Part shown: positions 1-64,000 of the stretch, piece by piece
How the letters are laid out: each line of letters opens with the position of its first letter
Numbering within the stretch: position 1 is the first letter of the stretch
Assembly (NCBI GenBank): GCA_046727955.1
Contig: JBKPDO010000038.1
Span: forward strand, 22,198-86,197
Source: a bacterium
GTDB taxonomy: Bacteria > Actinomycetota > CALGFH01
DNA: 64,000 nucleotides
Direction of reading: 5' to 3'
The notes under the pieces: generated by a model
What the model was told of the DNA's origin: nothing
Seen by the model: only the letters and a program-made list of their open reading frames with translations
Databases searched by the model: none
Position numbers and translations under genes: made by a program

Positions 1-1167
1 GCGGTCGGGCGGATGGCGCTCGGGCTGGGGGCCGGCGTGCCGCTGGTGGGCCGCTTCGGCCGCCTTTTTCCCGAGTCGGTGGCCGCGGTGTTCGCCGTCG
101 GCGCCCTGGCCGTCTGCGCCCGTGCGGTCGCCCCGGCCGTGACCCGCCGCGCCGCCGACCCCGGCCTGGCAGCCGCCGTGGCCGCGTCGGACGACTCGCT
201 TGCCTACTTCGCGCTGCGCGACGACCGCGTCACCGTCCGTGCCGGCGACGCACTGGTCACCTACGGTGCGGTCGGGTCGGTCGCGCTGGCGGCCGGCGAC
301 CCGCTCGGACCGCCCGAACAGTGGCCGGCCGCGATCGCCGCGTTCCTCGACGCCGCGGCCACGCAGGGCCGGATCGCGGCGGTGCTCGGCTGCGGGGCGG
401 CGGCCGCGGTCTGGCGGGAGGCCGGCCTGACCACGATCTACCTCGGCGACGAGGCGGTGCTCGACCTGCGGCGGTTCTGCCTGGAGGGACGGGCGGTCAG
501 GATCGCCCGCCAGAGCTGGAAGCGGGGCCAGCGAGCCGGCTACACCGCGCTGGTGCGCCGCTCGGGCGATCTCAGCCCAGCCGAGGTGACCGCCCTCGAC
601 GAGCTGTCCCGGCGCTGGCGGGGCGACTCGGCCGAGCGGGGCTTCTCGATGAGCCTCGGCCGCCTGTTCGACCAGCGTGACCCGGACATGCTGGTGGTCG
701 CGGCCAGGGACGCCGACGGACGGGTGCGGGGCTTCCTGCACCTCGTGCCGTGGGGCGCCGACGGGGCCAGCCTGGACGTGATGCGCCGGGACCGGGCGGC
801 GCCCTCCTGGCTGAACGACTTCCTGGTGGTCGAGGCCACACGCCACCTGCCCGAGCTGGGCGTCCAGCGGCTGTCGCTGAATTTCTCGTTCCTGCGGGCG
901 GTGCTGGCGGCCGGATCAGGGCCGGGCGTGCCCGGCCGGCTGCGCGTCGCGCGCTGGCTGCTGCGGCGCCTGTCCGGGCCGTTCCAGATCGAGACGCTGT
1001 ACCGCTTCAACCGCAAGTTCAACCCCGACTGGCAGCCCCGCTACCTGGCCATCGAGGCACTAGAGGAGCTGCCGCGGGTCGCGCTCGCCACCATGCGCGC
1101 CGAGGGTCTGCTCGCCGCACCGTGGCGCCTGCGCAGGCCCCGGGCCGCCGAAGCAGGCGCACCGTGA
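1..1167 (+). CDS. Phosphatidylglycerol lysyltransferase (MprF) C-terminal-domain-like protein (DUF2156/LPG_synthase_C-like), probably 5'-partial at the window edge
   Basis: ORF 13..1167 is open to the window start. The fold-level resemblance is to the C-terminal aminoacyl-PG synthase domain. Codon usage is the GC3-rich pattern typical of real genes here. Confidence 0.45.
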   Translation, partial: AVGRMALGLGAGVPLVGRFGRLFPESVAAVFAVGALAVCARAVAPAVTRRAADPGLAAAVAASDDSLAYFALRDDRVTVRAGDALVTYGAVGSVALAAGDPLGPPEQWPAAIAAFLDAAATQGRIAAVLGCGAAAAVWREAGLTTIYLGDEAVLDLRRFCLEGRAVRIARQSWKRGQRAGYTALVRRSGDLSPAEVTALDELSRRWRGDSAERGFSMSLGRLFDQRDPDMLVVAARDADGRVRGFLHLVPWGADGASLDVMRRDRAAPSWLNDFLVVEATRHLPELGVQRLSLNFSFLRAVLAAGSGPGVPGRLRVARWLLRRLSGPFQIETLYRFNRKFNPDWQPRYLAIEALEELPRVALATMRAEGLLAAPWRLRRPRAAEAGAP

Positions 1168-1189
1168 GGCGTCCATCCGGCGCGACCGC

Positions 1190-1330
1190 CGCCCCGACCG
1201 CCCCCACCACGACCCTCACCACCACGACCCTCACCACCACGACCACCGCCACCAGTCCACCTCACCATCGCCCCCTCAGTGCGGCCCACCATCGCCCCCT
1301 CAGTGCGGCCCACCATGCCCCTGGCCGCGA
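1190..1330. repeat. Intergenic tandem repeats: 18-bp unit caccaccacgaccctcac x2, then 24-bp unit ccaccatcgccccctcagtgcggc x2
   Basis: Direct reading of the sequence between the stop at 1167 and the next gene start. Confidence 0.7.
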
Positions 1331-1385
1331 CCATGCCCCCGTCCGCGGCCACCGCGGCCCCGGCCACCACCACCAGCTCCACCGC

Positions 1386-2504
1386 GTGGCGAGCGACCTG
1401 GTCCATATCCCGTCCAGCCTGCTCCACCAGGTCGGCCGGGCCGGACCGCTGGAGAGCCCGTGGGTGTCGGTCGGATTCGGGACGTTGCTGCTGGCCAGCG
1501 TCGCCACTGCGGTGTGGCGCCGGCGGCGGCGCCCGGCGGGGGCGTTGCGCCATCGCTGGCTGCGCCGGGGCAGCCTGACCGCCTGGCTCATCACCCTGGC
1601 CACCCTCTGCGGCCTTGGCGGGCTGAACACCTACGTTGGCTACGTGCCCACGCTTCCCTCCCTGTTCGGCGCGCTTCCCTTCCACGGCGAGCGGACCGGG
1701 GGCGAGTCCCGGCTGGTGACGCTGAAGATCGGCGCCCGGCGCCTGGACGTGCCGCCGAGCACCGCCTACGTGTACCTGCCGCCCGGCTACGACGACCGGG
1801 CCAACGCGTGCCGCCGCTACCCCGTCGTCTACCTCCTGCACGGCTTCCCAGGCAGCCCGATCGACTGGTTCCGGGCAGCCGAGGTCCAGAAGACCATGGA
1901 CGCGATGCTGGCCCGGCACCTGGTCCAGCCGATGATCCTGGTCGCCCCGGACGCGAGCGGCGGCTGGCTGCACGACTCGGAGATGCTCAACCAGGTCGGC
2001 GGCCCGCAGGTCGAGAGCTATCTCGTCGGTCCGGTCGTCCACGCCGTCGACGCGAGGTTCCGGACGGTCGCGACGCGGGCCGGTCGGGCGATCGGCGGCG
2101 TGTCGAGCGGCGGCTATGGCGCCCTCAACCTGGGCCTGCGACACCAGAACGAGTACTCGGTGATCCTGTCGCTGATGCCCTACGGCAACCCGGGAGGGGT
2201 GACCAGAGCCCTGCTCGGTGGCAGCCATGCCCTCTGGCTGGCCAATTCCCCCGGCTACTACATCCCGACGATGACCTTCCACCACTCGATGAAGGTCGAC
2301 CTACTGGCCGGCAGCCGGGACCCGGAGGCGCGCGAGGCGGCCCGGCTCGCCCGCATGCTGCAGGCCCGCCACCAGCGCGGAGTCTTCACCGAGGTCTCGG
2401 GCGCGACCCACACCTGGCGGGGCGCCCGCACCGAGATCGCCTATGCCCTCGCCTTCGCCAGCGCCCACCTCGGAGACGGCCACCCCGCCCGGGTAACAGC
2501 CTGA
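1386..2504 (+). CDS. Membrane-anchored esterase (putative esterase family PF00756, alpha/beta-hydrolase); start uncertain (GTG 1386 or GTG 1464)
   Basis: There is an N-terminal transmembrane segment. The esterase-family core includes YVYLPPGY...YPVVYLLHG...GGVSSGGYGAL. No in-frame ATG occurs after the upstream stop. Confidence 0.7.
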   Translation: MASDLVHIPSSLLHQVGRAGPLESPWVSVGFGTLLLASVATAVWRRRRRPAGALRHRWLRRGSLTAWLITLATLCGLGGLNTYVGYVPTLPSLFGALPFHGERTGGESRLVTLKIGARRLDVPPSTAYVYLPPGYDDRANACRRYPVVYLLHGFPGSPIDWFRAAEVQKTMDAMLARHLVQPMILVAPDASGGWLHDSEMLNQVGGPQVESYLVGPVVHAVDARFRTVATRAGRAIGGVSSGGYGALNLGLRHQNEYSVILSLMPYGNPGGVTRALLGGSHALWLANSPGYYIPTMTFHHSMKVDLLAGSRDPEAREAARLARMLQARHQRGVFTEVSGATHTWRGARTEIAYALAFASAHLGDGHPARVTA

Positions 2505-6336: not shown

Positions 6337-7566
6337 ATGGACATCGAGATCCGCCCGATAGGGCCCGACCACTTCCCGCAGTTCTCGCGGGTGCTCGACA
6401 TCGCCTTCGGCGCGGACACCAGCGAGGAAAAGCTCGCCGACGTGCAGCGTAGCCTCGAGTACGACCGCAGCATCGCCGCGTTCGACGGCGACCGGATCGT
6501 GGCGACAGGCGGCGCCGACTCCATGGAGCTGACCCTGCCCGGCCTGACCGCGATCCCGATCGGCGGCCTGACCGCGATCGCCGTCCTGCCGACCTACCGG
6601 CGCCGGGGGATCCTGCGGTCGATCATCGCCAGGCACTTCGAGGACGTCGAGGGGCGGGCCGAGCCCGTGTCGGCGCTGATGGCCTCCGAGTCGACCATCT
6701 ACGGCCGTTTCGGCTACGGCGCGGCCACCATGGCGGCTGAGCTGGAGATCAACACCGACAATGCCGTCTTGCTGCAGCCCCCGGACACGACCGGCCGGCT
6801 GCGCCTGCTCGACAAGGATGAGCGCGCCGCGGTGGTTCGCCCGTTCTACGACCGCGTCCGCAAGGCCCAGCCAGGTGAGCTGTCCCGGATCGACTGGTGG
6901 TGGGAGATGTTCGCCAGCGACCCCAGCTGGCGATTCCAGGGCGACAGCCAGCGCCAGGACGTGGTCTACGAGTCGGAGCCGGGCCGGGTCGACGGCTGGC
7001 TCAGCTACCGGGTCAAGCACGACTGGGAGCACGGGCTTCCCAACAACCTGATCAACGTGTTCCAGCTCTTCGCGCTCACCCCCGAGGCCGGCGGGGCTCT
7101 GTGGGGCTACTGCCTCGACCTCGACCTGGCCGGGACGGTTCGGCTGTTCAGCCGGCCGGTCGACGACCCGCTGCGCTTGTGCCTGGCCGACCCGCGCCGG
7201 CTCCGCACGGTCGGGGTCGCCGATCATCTCTGGATCCGGCTGATCGACCTGCCGGCGGCCATGGAGGCGCGCCGGTACGCGGCCGAGGGGCGCCTGGTGC
7301 TGGAGGTGACCGACGCCGTGCGACCCGGCAACCAGGGCCGCTGGTTGCTGGAGGGGGGCCCGGACGGCGCGAGCTGCCAGCGCACCCGGGACGAGGCCGA
7401 CCTGGCACTCGACGTGGCCGAGCTCGGCGCCGCCTATCTCGGCGGCACCCGGCTGGCGACCTTGGGCCGGGCCGGCCGGGTCCGCGAGGAGGTCCCCGGC
7501 GCTCTGGTGCGGGCCGACGCCATGCTCGCCAGCGACCCGCCGGCCTGGTGCACCACCCACTTCTGA
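6337..7566 (+). CDS. eis: Eis-family GNAT N-acetyltransferase (aminoglycoside acetyltransferase Eis-like, with sterol-carrier-like C-terminal domain)
   Basis: ATG at 6337 is in frame with ORF 6022..7566. Motifs AVLPTYRRRGILR and ESTIYGRFGYG match mycobacterial Eis, and the C-terminal LIDLPAAMEARRY...LEV region also matches. Confidence 0.8.
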   Translation: MDIEIRPIGPDHFPQFSRVLDIAFGADTSEEKLADVQRSLEYDRSIAAFDGDRIVATGGADSMELTLPGLTAIPIGGLTAIAVLPTYRRRGILRSIIARHFEDVEGRAEPVSALMASESTIYGRFGYGAATMAAELEINTDNAVLLQPPDTTGRLRLLDKDERAAVVRPFYDRVRKAQPGELSRIDWWWEMFASDPSWRFQGDSQRQDVVYESEPGRVDGWLSYRVKHDWEHGLPNNLINVFQLFALTPEAGGALWGYCLDLDLAGTVRLFSRPVDDPLRLCLADPRRLRTVGVADHLWIRLIDLPAAMEARRYAAEGRLVLEVTDAVRPGNQGRWLLEGGPDGASCQRTRDEADLALDVAELGAAYLGGTRLATLGRAGRVREEVPGALVRADAMLASDPPAWCTTHF

Positions 7567-7784
7567 TCCAGGGTGAAGGCGATCGGGTTCAGACCGTCCG
7601 CGAAGCGGGCGGCGCGCTCGATCCCCGCCGGCGTAAGCGAGCCCATGATGATCGGGATGCCTCCCTCCTGCCGCGGCTTGGGATTGACGATCGAGGCCGG
7701 GATGCGGAAATAGCGTCCCTCGAAGCTGACCGGGTCGGGAGAGGCAAAGGGCGCAGAGGTGGGCAGCGCGACGCCAAGATCCAT
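7557..7784 (-). pseudogene. Remnant of a luciferase-like monooxygenase (LLM/F420-dependent oxidoreductase class); only the C-terminal roughly 75 aa segment is present
   Basis: FEGRYFRIP...PKPRQEGGIPIIMGS...AARFADGLNP matches the LLM C-terminal region. The N-terminal two-thirds is absent, and the rest of the ORF is antisense to eis. Confidence 0.45.
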
Positions 7785-7968
7785 GGTCCCTCCTCGAGCG
7801 AGTCAGCTTGGCGAGTGCGATCAGGTTATCGGCGCGGCCTGCTCGCCGGCCCGCCCGCACGGTGAAGCTGCTGGCCGCCGACCTTATCAGCGCGGCTCGT
7901 GGCCGCGGGACTCAGACGGCTCGTCGTCGCTTGTCCCTCTGCCAGGCCAGGGCGCCTCACGTCATCGT

Positions 7969-9836
7969 CTACCTCTTCACCCATACCTGGTAGTAGCCGT
8001 CGCCGTAACTGGTCCGATAAGGCAGCTTCGCCAGCAGACGGTATTTGTCATTCGTCCGCAGTTGCCGGAGAAGCTTGTCGTCCAATTCCTTCGTCACTGT
8101 CCAGTTGAGCACGATGACATCGAAATAGGCCTCGCGAATCGCCGCCCGGTAGCCAGGCTCGCCCAAGAGTAGCCTGCCCTTTCGATCCGTGTAGTTGATG
8201 GCGTAGGTGGAGGTCCACTGGTCCGGTGTGGTCTCCGCACGAAGGTAGTATCTGGGCACCGGGTTGGACTCGACCAGGTAGCGTCCCCCTGGTTTGAGCT
8301 GCGACTTGAGCGTGGCGACCATGCGCGTGGAGTCATCCCAGGCATGGTAAAGGTACTGGGATTGGGTGATTCCCAGCGTCAGCAGCGTCACCCAGGCGAG
8401 GATGGCCAGCTGGGGGTACCGGAAATGCGCCCCCATTATCCGACTCAGGCCGACGCCGGCCATGGGAGCCGTGAACAGCAAGCCGTAACCGACGTGCTTG
8501 TGCAGCGACACGCCGGTGTGCAGGTACACCTGGTACGCCGGCGCGAGCAGGGCGGTGCCACACAACAGCAGGCCGAGGGCCAGTCGCCACGGCCGACCAC
8601 GATTCCCATCTCGCCTCATGCGCGGCACCTCGCCCATGCGTTCCCGCCGGACATAGCACACCGTGCCCAACAGCGCGAGAGCGAGCAAGCCCCCACCACA
8701 CTCCAGGCAGTCGAGGAGCAGATCCAGGGGATCTGCGTTGCCAACGGCTCGGGCCGTGGTGGTGACGCGCACGGCGTGGAGATAATCGTCCCCGGCTAGC
8801 GCCAGCGCCCCGGCGAGCGTGGCTGCGGTGAAAGCGGGCAGCAAGATGCCACGCAGCACCAACCCTCCCCACCTGCGGTGCGGGAAGGTGGCCAGCGCGG
8901 CGAGCACGGCTACGGTGGGAAGAAACATGAGAGCGGCGTACTTCACCGCCACCGCGAGCGCCATCACCGGTGCAGCGAGAAGGCACGCCGGGATAGCCAA
9001 GTTGTGAGCGGTACGGACCACGATCCAGGCGGCAAGTGCGAGCAGGAAGATCGTCGCTGCGTCGTAGGTGGCGAAGTTGCCCAGAAACAGGGTGGACTGA
9101 GTGGTGGCGAAGACGGCAGCCGCGCACAAGCCTGCCCGTTCGTTGAACAGCAACCGCGACAGTGAGTAGAGCAGGGCCGTGGCCCCGAGCATGAAGACGA
9201 GGCTCAAGGCACGCGCCGCGGTGAGGCCGAAGGCCGACTCGACTGCGGCGGCAAGCACCGGGTAAAGACCGGCGAGCCAGAAAAGTACGCGGTGAACTCT
9301 GGCGGGACAGGCCTTCCGTAGTGGAAGTGGTCCAGTTGGAGGTGGCCGACGTAGAGATACAGGGCCTCGTCCTCGAACGCGGTGTTCTGCAGCCGGAGAG
9401 ACAGCACGGCCTGCACGACGAGGATGCCGAGCAGGACCGCTCGACTTACCCGAGTGCGGCGGCGGCTCGGCGCGGCTGTCCAGCCGGATTGGGGGACGGA
9501 AGGCACGCTGTAGCCCGGCGTCCGCTGCCTTGGGGTGGCGACGGGGGCGGCCCGGTGCATGGGAGGAGTGGGATGGCCTCGCCCGCGCTGGCCGGGCGGA
9601 CCGTTGCGCTCAAAGCCTGTCCTTGTCTGATTCTCGTCCCAGGACCACGGGTTCGCGGGTGGCGGTTCAGTGGCAGACGGAGGAACGGTGGCACGCCCAT
9701 CCTGATCCCAGGGAAGATACTCGCCGCCGGGACCGATCTCGACGGCGGGGGGTCTAGGGACATTCGTTTCGCCACCGCCATTTCGCTGAGCGGCGATGCG
9801 GCCACCGCCAGGTCGGATTTCTCTCTCAGAGGCCAT
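7969..9836 (-). pseudogene. GT39/ArnT-PMT-like membrane glycosyltransferase with a long Pro-rich N-terminal extension, interrupted by a 1-bp frameshift near 9245-9260
   Basis: N-terminal ORF 9204..9836 (...LLGILVVQAVLSLRLQNTAFEDEALYLYVGHLQLDH...FSGSP) continues in another frame as ORF 7969..9258 (GLYPVLAAAVESAFGL...). It could be a true pseudogene or an indel error. Confidence 0.6.
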
Positions 9837-10882
9837 CAGAGATGCTTCACGTCGAAGCCGAAGAGATCGTTCTCGGCTCTTCGCTTGAACTCGGCGAGTG
9901 CCGATGGATCGCTGTCGATGCGCCAGTCGGCGCGCTTGACGTAGTCGAACCAGATAAAGCCGATGACATCATGCGACGCAGCAACGCCCGCGAAGAGATC
10001 AGCGACGTCCTTGCGCTTCCGCGGCCCCGGCTCCGAGGCCGTCTCGAGGATGAGGATGGGCTTGCGGGCGAACTTGCGCACCGCAGCCGTCGTTGGACCG
10101 AAGAGCGTCGGGAACGTGCTGGCTCCCCTGCCCGTGTAGTAGCCGATCACGCCGATCCAGTCCACGTACGAGTCGCCAGGATAGAACGGCTTGAGCGGGA
10201 CCTGGGGCACTGGGTTGATGACGTTGGGGCTCCACACCCAGATCACGTTGGTTGCCCCGACGTCGAGAAAGATGTCGTGGATTCGCCGCCATGCGCGCAC
10301 GAAGTCAACCGGGGTTGTCGCTGTGGTTCCCCAGGGGTACCAGTGTCCGTTCATCTCGTGTCCGAAGCTGATGGCCACCGGCAGGTTGAGAGTCCGCACG
10401 GCGGTGGCGAACTTCCTGGTGTAATCGTCAGTCGCGCCGTCAGCGATATCCGCGATGGAGGGTTTGAACGGCTCCCACACCATTACGGGCAGGGCGCCTG
10501 CGGCTCGCGCATTTCTGACCCCCTGGGCGTCAAACTGGTCGCCCCACGCGGTGTAATACTCGAGCAGGTTGGGTTGCTTGCCAATCTTCCCCGCAAAGTC
10601 CCCCACCGGGCCAAGGGACTGGGGAGCGCCGCCGAGGGCGGCGCCGAGGTACTTGCGAGGGGGCTTGAGCAGCGGACGCACGTCGAAGGGGACAAACGCC
10701 TCTTCTGACTGCCCCTCCACTGAACCACCGGCGTCCGTTGCACCCTTCGACCGATGATCCATCGGTCCCGAAGAGCACCCGAGGAACGAGCCGAGCAGCC
10801 CTGCAAGCAGTAGCCCGACGATAGGCCGGGGTATCCTCTTGGCGCGGGCCGCCCAGAGAGCACCAAGACGGCTCGTCCTCAT
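9836..10882 (-). CDS. Glycoside hydrolase family 26 (beta-mannanase/endo-beta-glycanase-like) lipoprotein
   Basis: The GH26 catalytic motif FGHEMNGHWYPWG is present. The lipoprotein signal ends in the lipobox LGC. Its start overlaps the upstream GT2 stop (ATGA), and its stop overlaps the downstream GT39-like start (TGATG). Confidence 0.75.
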   Translation of the reverse strand: MRTSRLGALWAARAKRIPRPIVGLLLAGLLGSFLGCSSGPMDHRSKGATDAGGSVEGQSEEAFVPFDVRPLLKPPRKYLGAALGGAPQSLGPVGDFAGKIGKQPNLLEYYTAWGDQFDAQGVRNARAAGALPVMVWEPFKPSIADIADGATDDYTRKFATAVRTLNLPVAISFGHEMNGHWYPWGTTATTPVDFVRAWRRIHDIFLDVGATNVIWVWSPNVINPVPQVPLKPFYPGDSYVDWIGVIGYYTGRGASTFPTLFGPTTAAVRKFARKPILILETASEPGPRKRKDVADLFAGVAASHDVIGFIWFDYVKRADWRIDSDPSALAEFKRRAENDLFGFDVKHL

Positions 10883-12563
10883 GCGACCTCCTCCTTGCGC
10901 GGCTGGACGAGGATGCGGCCGACGATCGCGGCATAGAAAAGTCCGGAGGAGAGCACGAGCGCATAATCCGGTGGGTCCATCGTCACCATCCGCCAGAGGG
11001 CTGCCCCTACCCACACAAGTGCCGTGGCGCCGCCCCAGACGGTGATGCCAGTCCAGAAGCGTCGGGCTTGGTCATTGTTCTTTCTCGCCGAGGAACCGGT
11101 CGGCCGCCACGCCATCTGCCTGCGACGAAGGCTGTCCCAGATGGCGAAGGTGTGGGCCCAGCCGTACATCATCCGGGTGGCCCACGCCTCCAGCCGGTAA
11201 GGGCACTTGTGCCACATCGGAAAGATCAGTGTCGTATAGACCAGGCTGGGGACGATCAGCGTCATGTTCTCGAGGCGCAGCGTCCCCGGCATTGCCAGCA
11301 GCAACGTGATGGGAATGAGCGGGCCCACAAAGGTGAACAGTGCCGTGTGGATGTAGTAGAAAAAGCCGGACAGATAGCACATGCGGGTCCGCAGCCTGAG
11401 CTTTGTCCTCCAGAACTTCTTGCTGCTCAGCAGGTTCATCGTGCCCGAGCACCAGCGGTACTGCTGGGTCTGGAAGGCGCTCACCGTGTCCGGGCATAGG
11501 CCCGTCGACAGCGTGATAGGCACGTAGCGGAGATCCCAGCCGAGGCGGCGCAGGTCAAAGCCCGTGTGCACGTCCTCGGAGTGCGCAATCAGTGTCGTGC
11601 CACCGTTCTGCCTGAGCGCGGCACGCCGGTAGATGGCGCAGCTACCTACGCAGATCGCACCGTCCCTGCGTTGTCGGGCCACCTGGACCGAGCGGTAGAA
11701 GAGCTCCTGCACCGCCCCGGCTCCGCGCTCGATCCAGCTCTGCTCGTCGAGCACCCGGAAGTACTGCGGGGACTGGACAATTGCAATCCTCCGATCGCTC
11801 TCCATGTACGGAAGCAGTTCGTCGAGCAGATCAGGGCGGGAGCGAAATCGGCGTCGAGGATGACGATGTACTCCCCTGAGGAGAAGTGGAACCCGTAGCG
11901 GAGGTTGCCGGCTTTCTTGAACCAGCCCCGGTTCGGGCGGCTGCCATACGCAAAACCGAAGTTGGCCGCCATGGCGGCGACCGCGCGACTACCCGCGTCG
12001 TCGAGGACGCGGGGCGTGACCACCCCTTGATAGTACTGCGCCATCCCGGCGACGTGAGTCCACGTATTGTGCAGCACTTCGAGAGGCTCACCGCACACCG
12101 GCAGGAAGACGTCGACCGTTGGGTACACGGCCGGGCGCCAAGACGACACCAGGCGCCTATGGGCACGCAGGTCGAAATCTCGGCTGAAAGCGTTGACTGA
12201 GAGCGAGATTAGATAGTACGAGATCGTGAAGAGCAGGAGCGGCAGGTATGCCCACATCCAGTGGGCGGAGTGCATGAGCCTGAGCTGGGCCAAGGTCAGG
12301 CAGGTGAAGCTGACGAGAGAGCAGCAGGTGAGCACCCACAGATGCCGCTCGATATAGGAGTACTTCTCCCGATCGTCCGGCGGCTGAGGCAGGAGCCCCG
12401 CGATGCTGGGCGCCGAGCGGTACGCAGCCCGCCTGCGGCTGTGGGTGGCAGTGGTCCGAGTCCCCGCCCCGCGGTCGATGCTCGGACGCTGACGGACGCC
12501 GACACCGCTTGGGAGGGGAGCCGGCCGGGGTTGGAGGGGGGTCACAGCGGCGGATCTCCACAC
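10879..12563 (-). pseudogene. GT2 processive beta-glycan synthase (cellulose synthase BcsA/CslA-like; DxD, TED and QQYRW motifs), with a 1-bp frameshift near 11858
   Basis: ORF 11646..12563 carries DVFLPVCGEP and ILDADFAP then loses frame. ORF 10879..11805 resumes with PYMESDRRIAIVQSPQYF...EDVHTGF...QQYRWCSG. A single missing C in tcccgccctg restores a continuous protein. Confidence 0.7.
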
Positions 12564-12855
12564 GTAGAGGCAGTTACCGGGGCCCCGCGAAAGGCAGCAG
12601 GGAGGTGAGGCGACGCAAGCCTGTCATATCCCTCTTGAGCTAGCAAGAACGTCACTTCACTGAAGCTTCACCTATAGGACGGACAAGTATGATATTACGC
12701 AATCCGCCAGAAGCGAAAGCGGGCGCTCGTTGGATGGCCCAGTGCGACAGACAGCGAGGGTGCGTCTGTCGAACGGGTCGTGGTCTATGCTTGGGTTGCT
12801 AGCTGGGGTGTTCCCGGGCGGGCCAGATGCCGCCGCGGCTGCGCGCATCAGCTGG

Positions 12856-19540: not shown

Positions 19541-20577
19541 TTACAGGCCGGCCTCGGCGAGGAGGAGGTCGACCAGGACCTCGGGGTCGGCGAGGTCGTG
19601 GGGCAGCCCTCGCGATACGAACCAGCTGCAGACCGCGCGCACGTCCCGCTGCAGGAACGTGCGGCCCTGCGGGTTGGCCACGACGTCGACCAGCTGCGGC
19701 AGGTCGATCAGGACCAGCTCCCCGCCATCGACCAGCAGGTTGTACGCCGACAGGTCGCCGTGGGCGTAGCCGCGGCGAGCCAGCGTCACCATGGCGTCGA
19801 AGAGCTGCCGCCACAGGTCTTCCAGCTCGCGCGGATCCGGGTGGAGCTGCACCAACCGCGGCGCGGCCGTGCCCGCGGCGTCCCCGACGAACTCCAGCAA
19901 CAACTCCGTGCCGATCCGCTGGACGGGGTACGGCACGGGAGCCCCGGCCGCCCACAGTTCGCGCAGCGCGGCAAACTCCGCCACCGCCCACTGCTGCGCG
20001 ATGAGGTTGCGGCCGAACTGGCTGCGGCGCTGCATCGCCCGCATCTCGCGGGACGCCCTGACGCGCCGTCCTTCCAGATAGCCCGCGTCCCGATGGAACA
20101 GGCGGTGGTCGCCGCCGCGGTAGCGTTTGGCCGCCATCAGGCAGGCCCGGCCGGCGCCGGGCAGGGCGCGCTCGACCAGGTACACGTCGGCTTCCTTGCC
20201 GGTCTTGAGGACGCCGAGGTCGGAGTCGACCGCGGCAAGCTCGGTGACACCCAGCTCGGGTACGGCTGCGGCCCGCGCTCGTCTGCCCCGTCCCAGCTGG
20301 ACCAACGGTGACCTTCGGGGGGACCGTCATCGCATGCGGCAGCCTCGCGCTTCTGGGCAAGGCGGGCGCGCGCCTCCTCGGTCAGCCGGCCCCTGGTGCG
20401 GGATTGCGGTTGGTCGTCGCGGTTGCGGCGCACCCGCTCGGCCGCGGGCGCGTCGGCCTGGTCGTACAGCTCGTAGAGGGAATCGACGTCGCCGACGTCG
20501 CCGATGTCGCCGGTAAGCAGTCGTTCGATGTCGCGCTCGCGCACGTGTGGCTCCTTGTGAGGGATCGCATCCCCCAC
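19541..20577 (-). pseudogene. RIO1-family serine protein kinase, apparently frameshifted near 20245
   Basis: ORF 19541..20305 holds the kinase core (LKTGKEADVYL, HGDLSAYNLL). ORF 20137..20577 holds the N-terminal region ending ...WSSWDGADERGPQPYPSWV. It joins TELAAVDSDLG only in another frame, so a 1-bp indel is implied. Confidence 0.6.
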
Positions 20578-20859: not shown

Positions 20860-21118
20860 CGGCCTGCAGGCGGCGGCCTTCCCGGTCCTGGCGCCGCTGG
20901 TGTTCGCGTCCTCGGTGTTCGTGCCGGTCAGCTCGATGCCCGGCTGGCTGCAGGCCTTCGCCAAGCACCAGCCGGTCTCGGTGACCGCCTCGGCGGTAAG
21001 GGCGCTGGTCCTGGGAGGGCCCACCGCCTCCTACGTCTGGCAGTCCCTCGCCTGGGCCGCTGGCATCGTCCTGGTCTTCGCTCCCCTGGCCGTCTGGCGC
21101 TACCGCCGCGCCGTGTGA
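20860..21118 (+). pseudogene. C-terminal remnant of an ABC-2 type transporter permease
   Basis: ...FPVLAPLVFASSVFVPVSSMPGWLQAFAKHQPVSV...VWRYRRAV is a typical permease C-terminus. No upstream part is present in any frame. Confidence 0.45.
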
Positions 21119-24358: not shown

Positions 24359-24640
24359 TCAGCGGCAGAAATGGCCGACGAAGTCGACGATCTTCCGCGC
24401 CTCGGTTCGGTCCGGATCGAGGTCGGGGTTGTAGATGCACAGCGTCCAGCCGAGGCAGTCGCGCCTCGACAGGGCGGTGCCAACCAGAGTGGTCAGCTCA
24501 ACCCAGGTGAGGCCGCCGTCTTGGGGGTAGTCCACCGCCGCGAGCTGGTCGGTGGCCAGCACGTCGAGATCCACGTGCAGCCACCAGAACCGCCCCCCGT
24601 CTGGGCGGCGTGATGATCATGAGTCCGCTGCAGCACGGGT
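24359..24640 (-). pseudogene. C-terminal remnant of an arginase/agmatinase-family ureohydrolase
   Basis: WWLHVDLDVLATD... is in one frame. It continues as MDLDVLATDQLAAVDYPQDGGLTWVELTTLVGTAL...CIYNPDLDPDRTEA in another. Both match the metal-binding C-terminal part of the arginase family. The N-terminus is absent. Confidence 0.45.
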
Positions 24641-25296: not shown

Positions 25297-25324
25297 CTTG
25301 CCCGGGACGAGCTGGACGAGAGGT

Positions 25325-25472
25325 GGTCCTCGACGGGCACGCGAACCGGTCCGCCGCGGCAGAGCTGGTCCTGTCACCGAACACGGTCGCCACCCACCTA
25401 CGATCGATCTTCGGCAAGCTTCAGGTCACCTCCCGGGTCCAGCTCACCCGCGCCGTCCTGGCGCAGAAGTAA
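25325..25472 (+). pseudogene. Orphan C-terminal LuxR-type HTH fragment
   Basis: ...AAELVLSPNTVATHLRSIFGKLQVTSRVQLTRAVLAQK matches the LuxR/FixJ HTH consensus. No receiver or effector domain lies upstream. Confidence 0.45.
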
Positions 25473-25569
25473 GGCCCAGCTGGGCTACCATTTGCGCAGA
25501 TCCCGCGATGCATTAAGAATGCGTTTCCAGGCGGTTGTTTCCGGTTTACTACGTACAGGCGGGAAGAGC

Positions 25570-26700
25570 ATGGCGGAGGGGCAGCCCACGCTCGATGACC
25601 CTGGTGGCGTGGTGGTGAAGCCGTTCGTCGGCCGCGCCAAGCATCTGGCCGAGCTGCGGGCGGCACTGGATGAGGCCGTCGCCGGCCGCGGCTCGCTGGT
25701 GCTGATCACCGGCGAGCCCGGGATCGGCAAAACGCGCCTTGCCGAGCACCTCGCGCTGGACGCGGCGCCGCGCGGCGCCGCGATGCCGGTGGGTCGGGCT
25801 CTGGTGGGACGGGGGTAGCGGGCTTCCCCCACATGGATAGGGCCGCGGCGCTGCGAGCTGAACCTGGGACTGGCCGGGGCGCGCATGGCCATCGGCGAGG
25901 TCGCCGCAGCCGTGCCGGCTACGAGGAGGCCGCCGCGCTGGCCAGGCGTCTCGGCAGCCCGAGCGGCTCGCCCGCGCCGCCCTCGGCCTCGGCGCCGAGG
26001 ATATCGTCTTCACCGTCGACGACCCGCAGATCCGCCTACTCGAGGAGGCGCTCGGCGGACTCGGCGGCCTGGGCGGACTCGGCGGGGACCCGGACGGATC
26101 CGGAGGACCGCACGCTGCCCAGGTGGATCAGGGGCTGCGCGCCAGGGTCCTCGCCCGGCTCGCCAGAGCACTGCTGTACACCCGCGAGGTGGAGCGGCGC
26201 GCCTCGCTCTGCGAGCAGGCGGTCGCCATCGCCCGCCGCGTCGGCGACCCGGCCACCCTCGCCGCGGTGCTCAGCGACTCGCACACAGCGACCCTGGGGC
26301 TCGAAGGGTCGGTGCGGCAGCTGCTGGCCACCGCCACCGAGATCGTGCAGCTCGCCGAGGCCGCCGGCGACCGGATTCCGGCGTTGCAGGGCCGCGCCCT
26401 GCGCAGCGTCGACCTGCTGGAGCTGGGTGAGGCGGCGGCCATGCGCGCCGAGATCGAGACCTACGAGCGCGGTGCGCGAGAGCTGCGCCAGTCGCACCTG
26501 CTCTGGCCGGCCCTGATGCTGCGCGCCAACCTCGCCATCATCGACGGCCGCTTCGACGAGGCCGGGCAACTCACCGATGAGGCGCTGGCCATGGGCCGCC
26601 GCGCCGGCGACCCCGCCGCCATCACCACGCACCTGGGCTTCCACAGCGTGGTCGGGCTGGTGAGGGAACCTCGCTCTGCTGGAAGACGCCTTCCGCGAGA
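25570..26700 (+). pseudogene. Fragmented LAL-type (large ATP-binding LuxR-family) regulator: N-terminal AAA/P-loop piece (25570-25818) and TPR-like middle piece (26123-26700) in different frames with gaps
   Basis: The Walker A region PFVGRAKHLAELRAALDEAVAGRGSLVLITGEPGIGKTRLAEHLA is followed by a stop. A later ORF carries the helical repeat region typical of LAL/MalT-like regulators. Confidence 0.45.
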
Positions 26701-27008
26701 TCGTGAAGCGCGCGCCGGTGTTCGTCTTCCGCACTTGGCCAGCACCTGCACCGCAGCGTCCGCACCGGCGGCTTCTGCGCCTACGACCCCGACCCGGCGC
26801 TGCGGGTCACCTGGAAGCTCTGAACGTAGTGGCTATGCCAGCGGGTGGGTTGGCAGCGACCGGTTGGCAGCGACCGCATAAACTACACGCGGTGTGGAGC
26901 TCTGCGCAAGGGGCGGCACGCGACCGCAACGTTCCCTTGCGAATTTGCGCCCCGTTATCGCAAGGCGCGAGAATTCCCGCCCACGCGCATTCTCCCGGGG
27001 AGACGCCC

Positions 27009-29221: not shown

Positions 29222-29226
29222 CGCGG

Positions 29227-30456: not shown

Positions 30457-30817
30457 GGCTCTCGCAATAACCGAGGCGGGGGACACGGGTGACGCTGACC
30501 AGCGCGATGCCCAGAGCCACGGCTGACGTGGCGATCATAACGGCCAGCGCCCCGCGCGTCATGGAATGCACAGCGTCGTCCACGAACAGCAGCGTAGCGG
30601 CCAGCACGGCGACCGGGAAGGCGACGCCCCCGACCCCGCCACGGTCCGTCCGTGCTGCCGGCCGGCGCTCACGCCGCCCGCGCGGGCGGCGTCGAGTTGT
30701 ACAGGCCCTTCGTCGACGTGTAGGCACGCTTGTCCAGCTTGGGCGGGGCCGCGCGGATCTTCGCCACGGCTGCCGGGTCGAGGTGCACCCGCTGCCGCTC
30801 CCGCTGGCCCCAGATGG

Positions 30818-30862
30818 CCACGTTGGCCACGTTGGCCACGTTGGCCACGTTGGCCACGCCAG
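30818..30862. repeat. 9-bp tandem repeat (gccacgttg) x5
   Basis: ggccacgttggccacgttggccacgttggccacgttggccacgcc, read directly. The coding status of the surrounding 30.46-30.92 kb is unclear. Confidence 0.8.
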
Positions 30863-30919
30863 GCATGCCCATCAGCCGCGGCCTGATCTTCCAGCGGGCC
30901 AGCACGAGGTCGGGTAGCC

Positions 30920-31273: not shown

Positions 31274-31289
31274 CAGAGTGATCGAGGCG

Positions 31290-31541
31290 GTGTGCGCGGA
31301 TCAACGCCAACGGCGGCCAAGACAACCGCGGCACCGGTCTGGGCCTGGCGATCGTCAAGGCGATCGTGGAGGCGCACGGCGGCACGGTGAGCGTGGCCAG
31401 CACCCTCGGCCAGGGAACCACCTTTACCATGCGGCTGCCCGGCTTCCAGGCCTCGCAGCACATGCCGCCGTTCCACCTGGTCGACGATCGCGCCGCCCGC
31501 GACGCTGACGGCGGCCGCGGTCATGGCGCCCGCTCGATCTG
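31290..31541 (+). pseudogene. C-terminal remnant of a sensor histidine kinase (HATPase_c G2 box)
   Basis: ...[40 protein letters not shown] is the canonical end of the HK ATP-binding domain. No upstream HisKA or sensor region is present. Confidence 0.5.
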
Positions 31542-44865: not shown

Positions 44866-44980
44866 GTGACCTCCTCCATCAATCGCTCAATATGGAGGAG
44901 TTTCCTCCACTTCAGCGAAGGATAGCATCCGGCGTGCCGGTGGTGGACCCGGTGGGCGCCGGCGACGCGTTCGTTGCCGA

Positions 44981-46718
44981 CTACCTCTCAGATGCCGCTG
45001 GCTCCCTGGGCGGCGAGGAACAGGCCCACGGCGATGATGGCGGCAGCGCTCGCCAGCGGCAGGGCCCGGCTGAGCCCGGCGAGTCCCAGGCGCGGCCCAC
45101 ACGCGCCCACGCTGGGGAGGCAGCGCCCTGGTCGAGCGCGACGCCCCGGTCGACCGCGGCGCGCCGGTCGACCGCGGCGCGGACCCGGACCAGCAGCATG
45201 CCAGAGCCGGTAAGAGTCAGCGCCATGCCAGCGCCGTATGCCAGCACCAGCAGCACGCCGAACCAGGCACGGCCGAGCGCGATCGCGCCGAGCAGCACGA
45301 CCAGGGCCGACGGGCTGGGCACGAGCCCGCCGGCGAACCCCATCGATACCAGGCTCCGCCAGCCCGGCGGCCGGTGGTGGTCCAGGGCGCCGCCCGGCGG
45401 ATGCGTGTGACCAGGAGGCGGGTCGGCGCGGCCGGCCGAGCCAGCGTGGCCCGGCAGGTGCATGTGACCAGGTGGGGCGGCGCAGGCGTGCCCGGGCGAG
45501 TGAGCGTGCCCGGCCGAGTGGGCGTGGCGGTGGGCGTGGTGGTGGCGGGCGGTGTGCAGAACCCCGGCGAAGGAGGGTCACGCCGATTGAGGCCAGCAGG
45601 AGGCCGCTGGCGAGGCCGAGCAAGGGGTCCTGGCGCTCGGGCGCGAGCGCGGTCGAGGCCGACAGCGCGATCCCGAGCGCCAGGACCCCGGCGGTGTGGG
45701 TGAGCGTGACCGTCGACGCGACCAGCAGCGCCTGTGACAGCGAGCTGCGCAGGCCGGGGAGGTAGGCGGCCATGATCGTCTTGCCGTGCCCCGGAGCCAG
45801 CGCGTGGATCGCGCCGAGCAGCAGCGCCAGCGCAACCGCCAGGGCACCGAAGGCGGGACCGAGGCGCTGGCGGGCGACTAGTTCAGTGAAGGCGCGGGTG
45901 GCCCGGTCCACCGCCATGGGCACGGCCGCCCGCCGCGGCGCCGCCTCCGGTCCCCCACCCTCCGAGGCCGCGCCCGCCGCCGCGGTGCCGCCGGGCCGGA
46001 ACGAGACCGTGGCGGCGCGTTGGTCAAGCGGCGAGCGCAGCAGGTCCTTGGGGTAGCTGGTGAGGCGGGCGCTGGCGCTGGCGGCCGGCACGTCGCGCGA
46101 GGTCACCGTTGTGCCGTCACCGACAGCCGTGACCTCGCGCCAGCCGACGCGGCCTGCATAGTCGCCGTTGGTGAGGGTGAGGGTCCCGCCCGCGAGGGTC
46201 CCGCGGGTCTCCCCGGCGAGGGCCCCGCGGGTCTCCCCGGCGAGGGTCCCACCCGCGAGGGTCCCACCCGCGGGGGTTCGACTCGGGGGCGCCTGGCCTC
46301 GGGCAGTGGCGAGGCCGCATTCGAGGCGGAGGGTGGGCAGACCGCCGGCCCCAGGCGGGAAACTCATCCGGCTCGCCACCGTGACCAGGTCGAGGCGGCG
46401 CCCGTCCAAGCGCAGGACCAGCCCACCGGCCAGCCGCGGGCAGCTCGCCGACCGCCAGGCGCTCGCCTCCGCCGACGACACCGACTGATCACCATCGGCG
46501 TCGATCTCCTGCCGAGTCTGGAAGGCCGGGATCTCCGCCATGTCCACCACGTAGTCGACCTCGACACGGTCCGGCAGCAGGCGCAGCCCGGCGTACTGGT
46601 TGACGGTGAAATTCCCGAGCGGGTGCGCGGCCGCGGCCCCCGCTGAGACCAGCAGCAGCCCCACCGCCAGCGCAGCCACCGCGGCCAGCCGCACACCCGC
46701 GCGCCGCATCCTGACCAT
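44981..46718 (-). pseudogene. NicO/RcnA-family nickel/cobalt transporter with an N-terminal signal peptide and periplasmic domain. It is repeat-rich and broken by at least one frameshift, possibly two.
   Basis: One frame holds the signal peptide, HPLGNFTVNQY, and the NicO signature HALAPGHGK. The His-rich loop and C-terminal TM region (HTHPPG...GLVPSPSALVVLLGAIALGRAWFGVLLVLAYGAGMALTLT) are in another frame. Internal tandem repeats lie at 46190-46270 and 45148-45186. Confidence 0.55.
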
Positions 46719-58083: not shown

Positions 58084-58848
58084 ATGCAGCTCCAGATCGT
58101 CAACCCACGGCCCAAGTACCAGCGCGTCAAGCTGATCGACCCGCCACCGCTCGGCTACATCCACATCTCCGCCGCGGTGGACCTCCCTCCCGGACGCATC
58201 CCGTTGCCGCCCAGGAGCTCGAAGCGGGCGGCGCTGCTCACGCGGCTCAAGGCGCTCGCCCGGCAACTGGAGACGCTCGCGACCGTGGAGAAGGCCACCG
58301 TCTACCGCGGAATCCTCCTCCCGCCTGCCGGTGGCTACGCCAGGCAGGCGGTTCACCCCGCGCGCTACGACGTGGTGGTGCTCGTCGAGACCACGTCGCC
58401 CGAGGTCATCGAGGAGGTCCAGGCCTCGGAGCCCTACAGGCAGCTCGTCGAGGCGATGACCGCGGCCGCGACCGACGTGCACGTCATGGCCGCCCATTGC
58501 CCCAAGCGCATCGGCGACGTCGATAAGACCCGCCCGGGCCTGTTCCTGTTCAACTATTTCGTGGCCGAGGACCGCGAGGTCGCGCTCGAGCTGTGGGATT
58601 ACCTCGCCGACTGGTACGCGGTAGAGACCGGCCTGAACAACTCCACTCTGCTGGAGCCCATCGACAAGGCCGACTACGTGTTCGTCAACCACGCTCGCTG
58701 GGACTCGAGCCTGCCACGGGTCATGCTCGAGCAGTTCCTCAAGCCCACTTTCTGGACCTACGTCCTGGCCAACCTGCGGGCCAACCGGGTCGGCGCAATG
58801 CCGAGCCTCTACCGCCTCGCGCGGACGCGGACGCCGGCCGCCGGCTGA
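58084..58848 (+). CDS. Hypothetical protein (255 aa), divergent from the XRE-cupin regulator
   Basis: ORF with good coding composition (MQLQIVNPRPKYQRVKLIDPPPLGYIHI...). No family is recognised. Confidence 0.45.
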   Translation: MQLQIVNPRPKYQRVKLIDPPPLGYIHISAAVDLPPGRIPLPPRSSKRAALLTRLKALARQLETLATVEKATVYRGILLPPAGGYARQAVHPARYDVVVLVETTSPEVIEEVQASEPYRQLVEAMTAAATDVHVMAAHCPKRIGDVDKTRPGLFLFNYFVAEDREVALELWDYLADWYAVETGLNNSTLLEPIDKADYVFVNHARWDSSLPRVMLEQFLKPTFWTYVLANLRANRVGAMPSLYRLARTRTPAAG

Positions 58849-58851
58849 CCA

Positions 58852-59039
58852 TGCCCGTCCCGGTGCTTTGGGGCGCCAGCGGCCTGTTCGGCCGGCTTCC
58901 CGCGCTCGACGTCTGGCGCGACTACGCCGACGAGGTCAAGGGAGCCGCGATCCCCGACTGCGGCCACTTCCTGCCGGAGGAGCAGCCTGAGCGCGTCCTT
59001 GGCGAGCTCGCTGGTTTCCTGCCGAACCTGGCCGGTTAG
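58852..59039 (+). pseudogene. C-terminal 62-aa remnant of an alpha/beta hydrolase (haloalkane-dehalogenase-like tail)
   Basis: MPVPVLWGASGLFGRLPALDVWRDYADEVKGAAIPDCGHFLPEEQPERVLGELAGFL matches the alpha/beta-hydrolase C-terminus. The catalytic His is present. No N-terminal part exists. Confidence 0.45.
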
Positions 59040-59085: not shown

Positions 59086-59681
59086 GGAGTCGAGATGGAG
59101 CCCCCACCCGCCCTCTCTGCGGTGCCGCCCGCCGACCTGCCAGAAGACTTCCGCCAGCGATCACGATTGCACGCGGTCGCCTGCTCTGCCTCACAGCGTC
59201 GGTCGAACCGTATCAGGTGCTTCAGGTGCTGGCGCCGCGCGGAGTTGCGTGAACCCTTGGGTCCAACCAGGAAGGACTCGGCCAGCCGACCGTGGCATCC
59301 CAAACCGAAACCGTTTGTCGGGCTGGCCCAACCCGTTCACCACCCGTTCACGTCGACCAGTTCAGGCGGCACAGCCACCGACGGCGGCGGCGACACCACG
59401 CTGCGCGCGCCGCAGGGCCTGGCGATCGAGTTCCTGCGCGTCCCCGAGCGCAAGAGCGTCAAGCATCGCCTGCACCTGGACCTGCGCACCAGCGGTTTCG
59501 CCGCCGCGGTCGACCAGGCGGTGGCGCTCGGCGCGAGCCGAGCCGACGACGTCTGCGCAGGAGCAGGAGGCCGATGGCAGGGACGCCGCGACCCCGACGG
59601 CGACGAGTTGTGCCTCCTGCACCCCGTCCCTGAACCAGGCTTTGGGGTTGCGACCTGTGGCTGGACGGCTTGGCGTCCACC

Positions 59682-60823: not shown

Positions 60824-61047
60824 ATTCTCGGTCTCGCGCTGATGCAGAGCAGCGATGGTGAGCTTCCGGCCGTGACCGTGGTCTCGAATCCGTGCTTGGC
60901 CAGGGCAGCGGTCACTGCCTCCGTGACCCGGCCCGCCTGCTCCTGGCCCGGTGTCTCATAGATCAGGCGCAGCACACCACCCGGACGCAACAGATCCTTT
61001 ATGAGCAGCAGTTCCGCGTCAGCCGGCCGCACCCAGAACAGGTTCAC
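60793..61047 (-). pseudogene. C-terminal remnant of a class I SAM-dependent methyltransferase
   Basis: ...LLLIKDLLRPGGVLRLIYETP... is the typical post-motif-III region. The N-terminal half, including the SAM-binding motif I, is absent and replaced by the 61069-61140 repeat. Confidence 0.4.
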
Positions 61048-61068
61048 GTTGATCGCGAAAACCTGGAG

Positions 61069-61140
61069 CGCCGGTCAAGTAGCCGGTTTTGAGGTGATTG
61101 GGTGGCCGCCGGGGGCGGCGCGCAGGGCCAGGACCGCTCA
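61069..61140. repeat. Copy 2 of the roughly 60-70 bp repeat first seen at 39826-39900
   Basis: Direct sequence comparison. Confidence 0.7.
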
Positions 61141-62944: not shown

Positions 62945-63089
62945 GGCTGCTCGCCTCCTTCCGCCCCCGAGGTCACGGCCGGCGGGGGCGCCGGGGTCGG
63001 GGTGAAACGGGACCCGGGGAGGCCCCAGGTGCGGAAGAACTCCCCGGTCTTGCGACACAACTCCACGTTGAGGGCGCTCGCCGTGTGGA

Positions 63090-63422
63090 TGATCGCGTTG
63101 GCCCGCCGCCGCGCCGCGACCACGCTGCCGCGCGTCGCGGGGCCACCGTCAGGCCCCGCGAGCAGCGGCGCGGCCGGCCCCGTGTCCTGACCGGCGCGCT
63201 GGCGCCGGTCGAGGTGCTGCAGGACCGCCTCGCGTGCCGCCAGCGACAGGAAGGTGATCCGCGCGCGGGGAGGTCGCGGCTGAGCGCTGTGAGGGGAGGG
63301 TGCACGAGCTGGCAGAGCGAGGAGCCGTCCCACGCGACGAGCGAGACGTCGCCGGGCACCGACAGCCCCATCTCCTGCGCCACCGCCACCCCGGCCACCG
63401 CCACCCCGGCCACCGCCATCAC
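63090..63422 (-). pseudogene. C-terminal remnant of a LacI-family regulator (effector-binding domain tail), frame-disrupted
   Basis: ...VAQEMGLSVPGDVSLVAWDGSSLCQLVHPPLTA... matches the LacI C-terminal region. No HTH or N-terminal subdomain is present. The frame changes downstream. Confidence 0.35.
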
Positions 63423-63835
63423 GCGGAGCGCTCCCGCTGATACGCACCCGCGGTGCGTTTACAGTCCGGCTCCATCGGCTTATCCGGTTCAGTAACTTGG
63501 GCGCCGGGAAACTTCCTCTTGAGGTGAGAGTGATCACTCTCTATCATTCTCTCGAGTCCGCCTCGCCGCCGTTCAAGAGGCCGGCCAAGAGGCCGGCGCG
63601 GAGCGCGAAGACCAAGGGAGGCCCCGATGATCGCTCCGCCGCCGGCCGTCGCGCCGTCACCACCGCCGTGCTGGTGCGGTCAGCCCGGCCAGAGCCACAC
63701 CTCCGACCACACCCCACCCGCCGACCACACCCCACCCGCCGACCACGACTACGCCCCCGCGCAAGGGGTCGAGTCGGAAGCCTACGACGCCTGGTGAGCC
63801 GGGTCCTCACCACCCTTATCAAGGGAGGTTCCCGA

Positions 63836-64000
63836 TGCTCACCCATGCCCCCTTCGAGGCTGCCGACGAACCCGGCGACCAGCAGGGCGAGATCCTAGTG
63901 CTCCCCCTGCAGTTCGTCGTCGCCCCCGACCACGGCCGCTTCCACCCCACCACCCCCACGCACCCAGGCAACACCCGCCTGGACGTCGGCGCGCTCGTCG
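63836..64000 (+). CDS. Hypothetical protein, 3'-partial at the window end
   Basis: The ATG follows the RBS aagggagg. The ORF runs off the end of the window. Confidence 0.4.

Follow-up and report, generated by a model that had tools for sequence, protein, structure and literature searches.

The window analysed here is a 64-kb stretch of DNA (64,000 nucleotides; positions 22,198 to 86,197, forward strand, of contig JBKPDO010000038.1, assembly GCA_046727955.1) from an actinomycete of the GTDB lineage CALGFH01, in which frameshifted genes and orphan gene fragments are interspersed with intact genes. It has 71% GC and contains no Ns. We traced its coding path with a frame model based on GC at third codon positions (GC3), which flagged same-strand frame switches and long stretches devoid of signal. 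A Pfam scan of this path revealed a gene content that is ordinary for a free-living actinomycete (Tex, a MacB/FtsX permease, thiolase, an aminotransferase, MFS pumps, a ParE/Phd pair), with many regulators of the TetR, MarR, PadR, MerR and XRE families; scans for tRNAs and Rfam families found no rRNA, tRNA or other Rfam family in the window. The 48 intact genes account for 66.8% of the sequence, 18 defective features for 16%, and other non-coding or unassigned DNA for 17%, which makes defective features ~27% of all features in the window. The genes disrupted by small indels, and the low-GC island in which two of them lie, are the following.

7959..12739, minus-strand genes: low-GC island with a GT2-GH26-GT39 cassette, ~4.8 kb; GC 64-66% vs ~71% in the flanks
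7969..9560, minus strand: ArnT/GT39-like (PMT_2) glycosyltransferase pseudogene, cut by a 1-bp deletion at 9267 into open reading frames (ORFs) of 118 and 429 amino acids (aa)
9836..10882, minus strand: GH26 glycoside hydrolase, intact, 348 aa (sister copy 349 aa)
10879..12579, minus strand: cellulose-synthase-like GT2 pseudogene, lacking 1 bp at 11838 (polymorphic) and, relative to the sister, 2 bp at 12579
19541..20544, minus strand: RIO1-like kinase, frameshifted by a 1-bp deletion at 20247, with the N-terminal ~99 residues out of frame
44988..46718, minus strand: RcnA/NicO-type nickel-cobalt efflux pseudogene, with one G gained at 45565 and one C lost at 45098

Lesions can be validated in place of read-level data if the same population has been assembled independently from several metagenomes, a comparison that separates real lesions from possible consensus errors. 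We located replicate DNA by exact-protein look-ups in 11 other assemblies: eight JGI metagenomes (3300078518, 3300086680, 3300061536, 3300079549, 3300078327, 3300082284, 3300086682, 3300078493), one Logan run and two NCBI metagenome-assembled genomes (MAGs; GCA_046725455.1 and GCA_046730375.1). Every base of the window is covered 2-8 times by these assemblies (median 5), at 99.4-100% identity and with unbroken collinearity, and the differences private to the window amount to five single-nucleotide polymorphisms (SNPs) and one indel in 64 kb. Given this unbroken coverage and the scarcity of private differences, mis-joined contigs and a generally indel-prone assembly are ruled out as sources of the pattern.

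The four frameshifted genes that the preliminary description had listed were all recovered, within ~20-115 bp of where it had placed the lesions. In each of them (GT39, GT2, RcnA and RIO) collinearity with an intact full-length orthologue breaks at the lesion, and such orthologues do exist: 530 aa for GT39, 540 aa for RcnA, 334 aa for RIO (in six other assemblies), and 583, 349 and 530 aa for the three genes of the cassette. Among the five 1-bp frameshift sites, four recur in independent assemblies, and the contexts are runs of 1-4 bases, with no long homopolymers.

The GT39 lesion is a single missing C at 9267 (GGTCC to GGTC on the minus strand, from the DNA alignment to the intact orthologue); the PMT_2 body is thereby shifted out of the frame that encodes the N-terminal helix and the FEDEALY loop. 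Restoring one base gives a 530-aa protein with 95% amino acid identity and 100% coverage to the intact 530-aa homologue P0001, and with hundreds of further matches. This lesion lies outside any repeat and is shared by all five covering loci, i.e., it is fixed. The GT2 lesion is still polymorphic. The tract at 11838 reads CCC in the window, CCCC in loci L015 and L213, and CCCCCC in the sister lineage, exactly the missing C in tcccgccctg that had been pointed out before. The frameshifted allele was found in four further loci from three other assemblies, and the intact allele, of 555 aa, in one MAG of the same population (GCA_046730375.1, source of L015 and L213). Once repaired, the gene gives one continuous Glycos_transf_2 match (2-166/168) together with a CelA-like match. 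Relative to the sister, the GT2 gene also has a 2-bp deletion at 12579, around codon ~17, which is fixed in the population and whose effect is uncertain. Three of the five window-private SNPs (11074, 11435 and 11442) sit within 370 bp of the GT2 pseudogene, a cluster that could reflect relaxed constraint or a small recombination tract.

The RcnA gene had been described as carrying one 1-bp lesion near 45450. The frameshift is there, but there are two indels, at 45565 and 45098, and they compensate each other: ~153 codons, including the His-rich loop and two transmembrane helices, are out of frame while the ORF stays open. The DNA alignment to the orthologue has exactly two gaps that are not multiples of 3, and six others that all are. 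The repaired protein is collinear with the intact 540-aa orthologue P0121 (86% identity) and scores 85.7 bits against NF007454 (15-243/283), vs 47.2 bits (15-108) for the ORF as called; its match to Pfam NicO likewise spans 4-228/287 vs 4-94. Beside the orthologue is a Na+/H+ exchanger gene that shares 97% DNA identity with that of the window. No indel separates the window from the 5-6 covering loci (4-5 assemblies) at either site. Gene callers report a 609-aa ORF without Pfam hit on contigs of four assemblies, and the pair of frameshifts thus appears, from the reading frames, to hide a dead transporter inside an open ORF. A second NicO-family gene, of the HoxN type, lies 4 kb away (40030-41160) and is intact (NicO 3-286/287, 304 bits); of the two, only the RcnA-type gene is broken.

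The RIO1-like kinase differs from the other genes. A C is missing at 20247, where GACCACCC becomes GACACCC, and this deletion was seen in the window alone: each of the five assemblies whose DNA covers the site retains the C and encodes 334 aa in one ORF, and a sixth (3300067032) has a 334-aa gene call. Scanning GTDB genomes with this kinase gave best matches of just 66-70% identity (Pseudonocardiales and a Microflora Danica MAG), and the species of the window itself was not among the matches. Because these relatives align from residue ~18-40 onward, the long form seems to be the ancestral one; a tblastn search of the matched genomes found no synteny with the window, hence no help on ancestral states. 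The lesion is the sole frameshift private to the window and the sole one in an otherwise intact, conserved and constrained gene. We give equal weight to a consensus error and to a private, very recent mutation at this site.

The RIO site bears on the idea, raised in the preliminary description, that the assembly is indel-prone, with frameshifts being consensus errors of long-read sequencing in G/C runs. Being private and contradicted by all covering DNA, this lesion agrees with such errors, and the window is longer than the longest contig retrieved from the same population (53.6 kb), as could result from a different assembly technology. However, the GT39, GT2 and both RcnA indels recur in 3-5 other assemblies, the affected runs are short, and the private differences of the window (five SNPs, one indel) are in the natural proportion of SNPs to indels found among the other assemblies. 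We therefore regard assembly error as a very unlikely account of the pattern; it applies at most to the RIO site, and there with an even chance.

Besides these genes, the window contains short pieces of genes, listed with their matches to family models or proteins (start-end/length).

7434..7784, minus strand: internal fragment of an LLM-class F420-dependent oxidoreductase (116-aa ORF); Bac_luciferase 141-218/314, TIGR03619 131-211/247
20900..21118, plus strand: C-terminal tail of an ABC-2 permease (72-aa ORF); ABC2_membrane 165-209/211
24362..24616, minus strand: putative C-terminal tail of an arginase-family protein; Arginase 204-270/280, E 0.004, 17 bits, below the curated cut-off; GC3 0.87
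25323..25475, plus strand: LuxR-type helix-turn-helix (HTH) tail (49-aa ORF); GerE 13-55/57, with no receiver or effector domain upstream
25520..25818, plus strand: head of a LAL/STAND regulator, Walker-A region only; AAA_16 1-59/167
25862..26881, plus strand: central helical-repeat piece of the same LAL/STAND regulator, in a different frame from the head
30546..30923, minus strand: FtsX-like permease remnant (~83 nt homologous; 30546-30628 matches 11198-11280 of contig L133) and an 84-aa repeat-containing ORF
30920..31273, minus strand: 117-aa ORF resembling an isolated Ig-like/beta-sandwich domain by sequence pattern only; called in all assemblies
31282..31542, plus strand: histidine-kinase ATPase tail; HATPase_c 68-108/111
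44900..44985, plus strand: putative PfkB sugar-kinase signature remnant, ~25 aa (VVDPVGAGDAFVA), read from the sequence in the TetR-RcnA intergenic gap
58818..59039, plus strand: C-terminal tail of an alpha/beta-hydrolase (62-aa ORF); phmmer E 8e-13 to fluoroacetate dehalogenase 233-300/306
59389..59620, plus strand: VOC/glyoxalase tail; Glyoxalase_6 34-106/106
60885..61137, minus strand: 84-aa ORF resembling a methyltransferase C-terminus by sequence pattern only
63141..63458, minus strand: fragment of a LacI-family ligand-binding domain; Peripla_BP_3 84-135/167

At least 13 isolated fragments had been proposed, and partial matches to families or PDB entries bear out most of them. The VOC tail is real, and another VOC gene, at 24889-25296, is intact (3-119/121). 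The arginase tail and the PfkB motif have consistent but weak matches (for the latter, phmmer E 0.002 to KDG kinase 238-262/309 and E 0.03 to ribokinase 237-265/313). The Ig-like domain and the methyltransferase tail found no Pfam or PDB match and stay unconfirmed, and the proposed deaminase head was not located in the window. The 84-aa "VANVAN" ORF beside the FtsX-like remnant had been a candidate RND fragment; this assignment is unsupported, since L133 has an FtsX-type permease as the neighbour and the ORF itself matched nothing. Six-frame scans of the surrounding DNA found no partners of the LLM, ABC-2, GerE, AAA_16, HATPase_c, VOC, LacI and alpha/beta-hydrolase pieces, and for the ABC-2 tail the upstream partner is absent in any frame. 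The calls are reproducible: the LLM fragment, which adjoins the island and overlaps the 3' end of an Eis-like GNAT gene, is called identically in seven assemblies, and the LuxR HTH tail has a precomputed GerE hit on the 49-aa call in five.

Two of these remnants give a measure of what was lost. The LAL head corresponds to residues ~1-85 of ~1100-aa proteins, and the central ("TPR") piece to residues ~480-740 of proteins of 1000-1150 aa with an N-terminal AAA_16 domain, one of which also has a C-terminal GerE domain; ~400 residues are thus gone between head and middle, and ~400 after. In one assembly (L005) the central piece has a further 26-bp deletion at 25895. A scan of metagenomes with the aminotransferase retrieved only a distant sister contig, L133, with 89% DNA identity and partial synteny. 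It has no LAL gene, and its counterpart of the ~83-nt FtsX-like remnant is part of an ORF of 978 aa that has an FtsX domain and is situated upstream of the YNCE gene. These cases uphold the earlier argument for genuine deletions and rearrangements.

Could the orphan fragments instead have been made by mis-joined contigs or a chimeric MAG, as the preliminary description had allowed? They do lie where blocks meet, and at some of these junctions synteny with the sister contigs is also lost. However, several independently assembled contigs span every fragment junction unbroken (L003, L004, L005, L015, L016 and L020 those at 22.9-27 kb; L110-L112 and L117-L122 those at 58.8-63.8 kb). We rejected this explanation, whose probability is close to nil.

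The defects are not evenly spread. They cluster at 7.4-12.7, 20.5-21.1, 22.9-26.9, 30.5-31.6, 44.9-46.7, 58.8-61.9 and 63.0-63.8 kb, and long normal blocks occupy 13.3-20.5, 33-44 and 47-58.8 kb. Beyond the window, the gene tables of L007 and L117 show flanks of 3.7 kb with 91% coding and 7.6 kb with 90% coding, with full-length genes, and the sister locus L123 is 92% coding. Pseudogenes typically make up 1-5% of prokaryotic genes (PMC11078800). The local pseudogene density is clearly above the usual, but it is patchy.

This distribution is relevant to a further explanation, in which a host-restricted or bottlenecked lineage undergoes reductive evolution of its whole genome under relaxed selection and is at an early stage comparable to M. 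leprae or Sodalis. The large share of defective features and the low proportion of intact coding sequence (67%) agree with it, and so do the very low diversity of the population (~1-2 SNPs per kb) and the fairly high share of nonsynonymous changes among coding SNPs (34 nonsynonymous vs 24 synonymous; rough ratio of polymorphism rates, pN/pS, ~0.5). Yet coding density returns to normal just outside the window and in the long blocks within it, and scans of the coding path and six-frame scans of the junk regions detected no insertion sequence (IS) elements and no transposase or integrase domains. Moreover, large free-living genomes typically have the high GC content and the many regulators and efflux genes seen here, many environmental metagenomes contain the organism, and frameshift polymorphisms are absent from intact genes, the RIO lesion aside. 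We thus consider genome-wide reduction unlikely. The suggestions of relaxed selection, of host restriction or a bottleneck, and of a MAG artefact find no support in the normal flanks, the lack of IS elements in these scans, the GC content and ratios of nonsynonymous to synonymous substitution rates (dN/dS) that are not raised.

The polymorphisms between assemblies show where selection acts. There are eight frameshifting indel polymorphisms, of which seven lie in remnants or intergenic DNA (11837, the GT2 site; 25895; 32955; 39371; 52373; 59259; 63550) and the eighth is the RIO lesion. Finding at least seven of eight in the 33% of the sequence that is not intact has p ~0.003 (binomial estimate). 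By comparison, 8 of 13 in-frame indels are inside intact genes, in codon repeats. The avoidance of intact genes by frameshift polymorphisms indicates that purifying selection acts on the genes called intact and not on the remnants. The broken genes have dN/dS values, window vs sister, of 0.28 (GT39), 0.24 (GT2) and 0.32 (RcnA), close to those of the intact GH26 (0.32) and Na+/H+ exchanger (0.33) genes, i.e., we found no rise toward 1, as would result from relaxed constraint, in these three genes. Because broken genes have dN/dS no higher than their intact neighbours, the frameshifts are probably recent relative to the 3-12% divergence from the sisters, and we read the low values as recent inactivation, not as retained function.

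Short tandem or codon repeats also vary in copy number between assemblies, at 1263, 24032, 30815, 44758, 54471-54875 and 60744. Five of the six changes in length are multiples of 3 bases, the sixth being a GTG run at 24032. The variants include 24 bp in the N-terminus of an esterase, a 9-bp "VAN" unit, a 30-bp "NAATT" repeat at the N-terminus of a TetR regulator, several indels in an acidic protein with D/G/T repeats, and the 12 bp at 60744.

A further question is whether the frameshifts could be functional, with surface-glycan and transporter genes switched on and off by phase variation or programmed frameshifting. The GT2 gene is polymorphic for one C within the population and has a longer tract in the sister, the cassette probably makes a cell-surface polysaccharide (a predicted function), and the RcnA indels leave the frame open. 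However, known contingency tracts are far longer than these 3-4 bases, and the variation of the GT2 tract (C3/C4) is seen only between assemblies. Within the cassette, the GT39 lesion has gone to fixation and does not lie in a repeat, none of the sites has a slippery heptamer, and the out-of-frame segment of RcnA replaces conserved transmembrane helices and the His-rich loop. Switching is thus highly improbable.

The island provides a plausible origin for two of the broken genes. By blastn, it is 94-96% identical to sister contigs L123-L125, solely between 7959 and 12739, with sharp ends of homology. The cassette is intact in contigs L123-L130 of the sister lineage (assemblies GCA_009772855.1, GCA_009772115.1 and GCA_009772055.1, and several ENA assemblies), where its GC content is also low and its flanks, of 71-77% GC, are unrelated to the window. 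The sole indel in GH26 between window and sister is of 3 bp and in frame. Since the island combines a deviant composition with an intact copy in an unrelated context of the sister lineage, it has probably moved horizontally, and the data fit a horizontally acquired cassette that is now decaying in the host of the window. The boundaries show no flanking repeats of at least 7 nt, domain scans found no integrase domain in the island, and the tRNA scan of the window no tRNA.

Taken together, these results favour genuine, mostly recent gene inactivation, clustered in a few flexible patches, in a natural population of a free-living uncultured high-GC soil actinomycete (with a probability of roughly 0.8). 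The lesions are real and heritable, and intact orthologues exist in sister lineages. Across the consensus assemblies, the GT39 and RcnA lesions and all stubs are fixed, and the GT2 lesion is still segregating. Small indels produced by replication slippage in very short G/C runs may have frameshifted presumably dispensable genes, here one of two nickel/cobalt transporters and all but the GH26 gene of a surface-glycan cassette that was probably acquired horizontally. Larger deletions and rearrangements left only heads, central pieces or tails of other genes, which encode regulators, transporters and enzymes. The cassette would have been acquired by transfer and be in the course of being lost, a "failed" horizontal gene transfer (HGT), and stubs would persist only until deletion removes them. 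Local recent decay in flexible patches, including failed transfer, is a better description of the window than those proposed before.

Several points weigh against this interpretation. We infer both the dispensability of the affected genes and their loss of function, and some products could still be made: the 429-aa ORF of GT39 could be expressed, and so could the remaining 254-aa ORF of RIO, which retains the whole kinase domain. The island has no integrase, tRNA or flanking repeats that would point to a mechanism of transfer, and three of the listed stubs (Ig-like domain, methyltransferase tail, deaminase head) lack confirmation. The evidence for fixation comes solely from consensus assemblies. 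If several of the JGI samples were taken at one site or in one series, as is possible, the libraries would be independent but the populations perhaps not.

In a broader variant, the patches would be the visible part of an ongoing, population-wide gene inactivation, in an abundant clonal free-living lineage at the onset of genome erosion after a bottleneck, where the loss of the glycan cassette is segregating and possibly selected by phages or grazers. We regard this variant as rather unlikely. Under the preferred interpretation of local decay, the window cleanly illustrates how a recently transferred glycan cassette is lost and does not by itself point to an unusual lifestyle. Annotation should also be changed: about a dozen short ORFs, together with the loci of GT39, GT2 and RcnA, are now called hypothetical proteins and should carry labels as pseudogenes or remnants, and the 609-aa "NicO" ORF is out of frame for ~150 residues. 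Overall, this is ordinary, well-documented pseudogene biology in an undescribed lineage, modestly interesting for a cassette caught mid-loss and for the compensating frameshifts of RcnA.

Other observations concern the surroundings of these features. Positions 6072-6272 hold a 19-30 nt unit, CCTTGCCGCGTGGGnTGCA, in four copies, of which one is forward and three are reverse (5 matches vs 0.23 expected); they occupy the intergenic region from which an MFS gene and the Eis-like GNAT gene diverge. Sister contig L132 has a related element (2975-3192), downstream of its intact RcnA gene. The cluster could be an operator array or a repeat resembling repetitive extragenic palindromes or miniature inverted-repeat transposable elements (REP/MITE-like). 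The MFS gene at 4674-5999 (minus strand) is convergent with the gene of a 543-aa GT-C-like membrane protein (3249-4880, plus strand), and the two overlap by ~200 nt (4674-4880); several assemblies call a wrong-frame 470-aa ORF without Pfam match instead of the 441-aa MFS protein. In contig L133, 2.8 kb (4665-7434) separate the aminotransferase and YNCE genes and include a DUF6851/VCPO-like gene of 504 aa. The corresponding gap in the window is of 5 nt (29221-29227), from either a clean deletion in the window or an insertion in L133. Finally, positions 36515-39333 encode a siroheme NIR_SIR sulfite/nitrite reductase (546 aa) followed by an FrhB/FdhB-like F420-binding subunit (392 aa) with a 4Fe-4S dicluster, the two genes overlapping by 1 nt. 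As two genes, the pair would resemble the F420-dependent sulfite reductase (Fsr), which is known as a fusion in methanogens.

How does the window compare with known cases of gene decay? Like the homopolymer errors of long reads, its lesions include single-base indels beside G/C bases; unlike them, four of five sites are reproduced independently, in runs of 1-4 bases, and only one indel is private. Mycobacterium leprae, another actinobacterium, has 36.5% pseudogenes (PMC11078800), and the density of defects in the window (~27%) is in the same range; it differs in that the DNA just outside the window is back to ~90% coding, and in its high GC content, abundance of regulators and environmental distribution. 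Bacterial pseudogenes are quickly removed (PMC11078800, PMC2916853). The young pseudogenes of Salmonella (Kuo and Ochman 2010, PMC2916853) are similar to ours in being recent frameshifts at the level of strains or populations, with dN/dS not yet raised and a short expected life, whereas the window comes from an environmental uncultured actinomycete and has many older deletion stubs beside the young frameshifts. Many bacterial pseudogenes originate in failed HGT (Liu et al. 2004, as summarised in PMC11078800). The cassette of the window resembles such pseudogenes, with 64-66% GC in a 71% GC genome, an intact copy elsewhere in a different context, and frameshifts in two of its three genes. It departs from them in that the scans found no mobility genes or attachment repeats and in that one of the lesions is still polymorphic, which places the loss of the cassette in progress.

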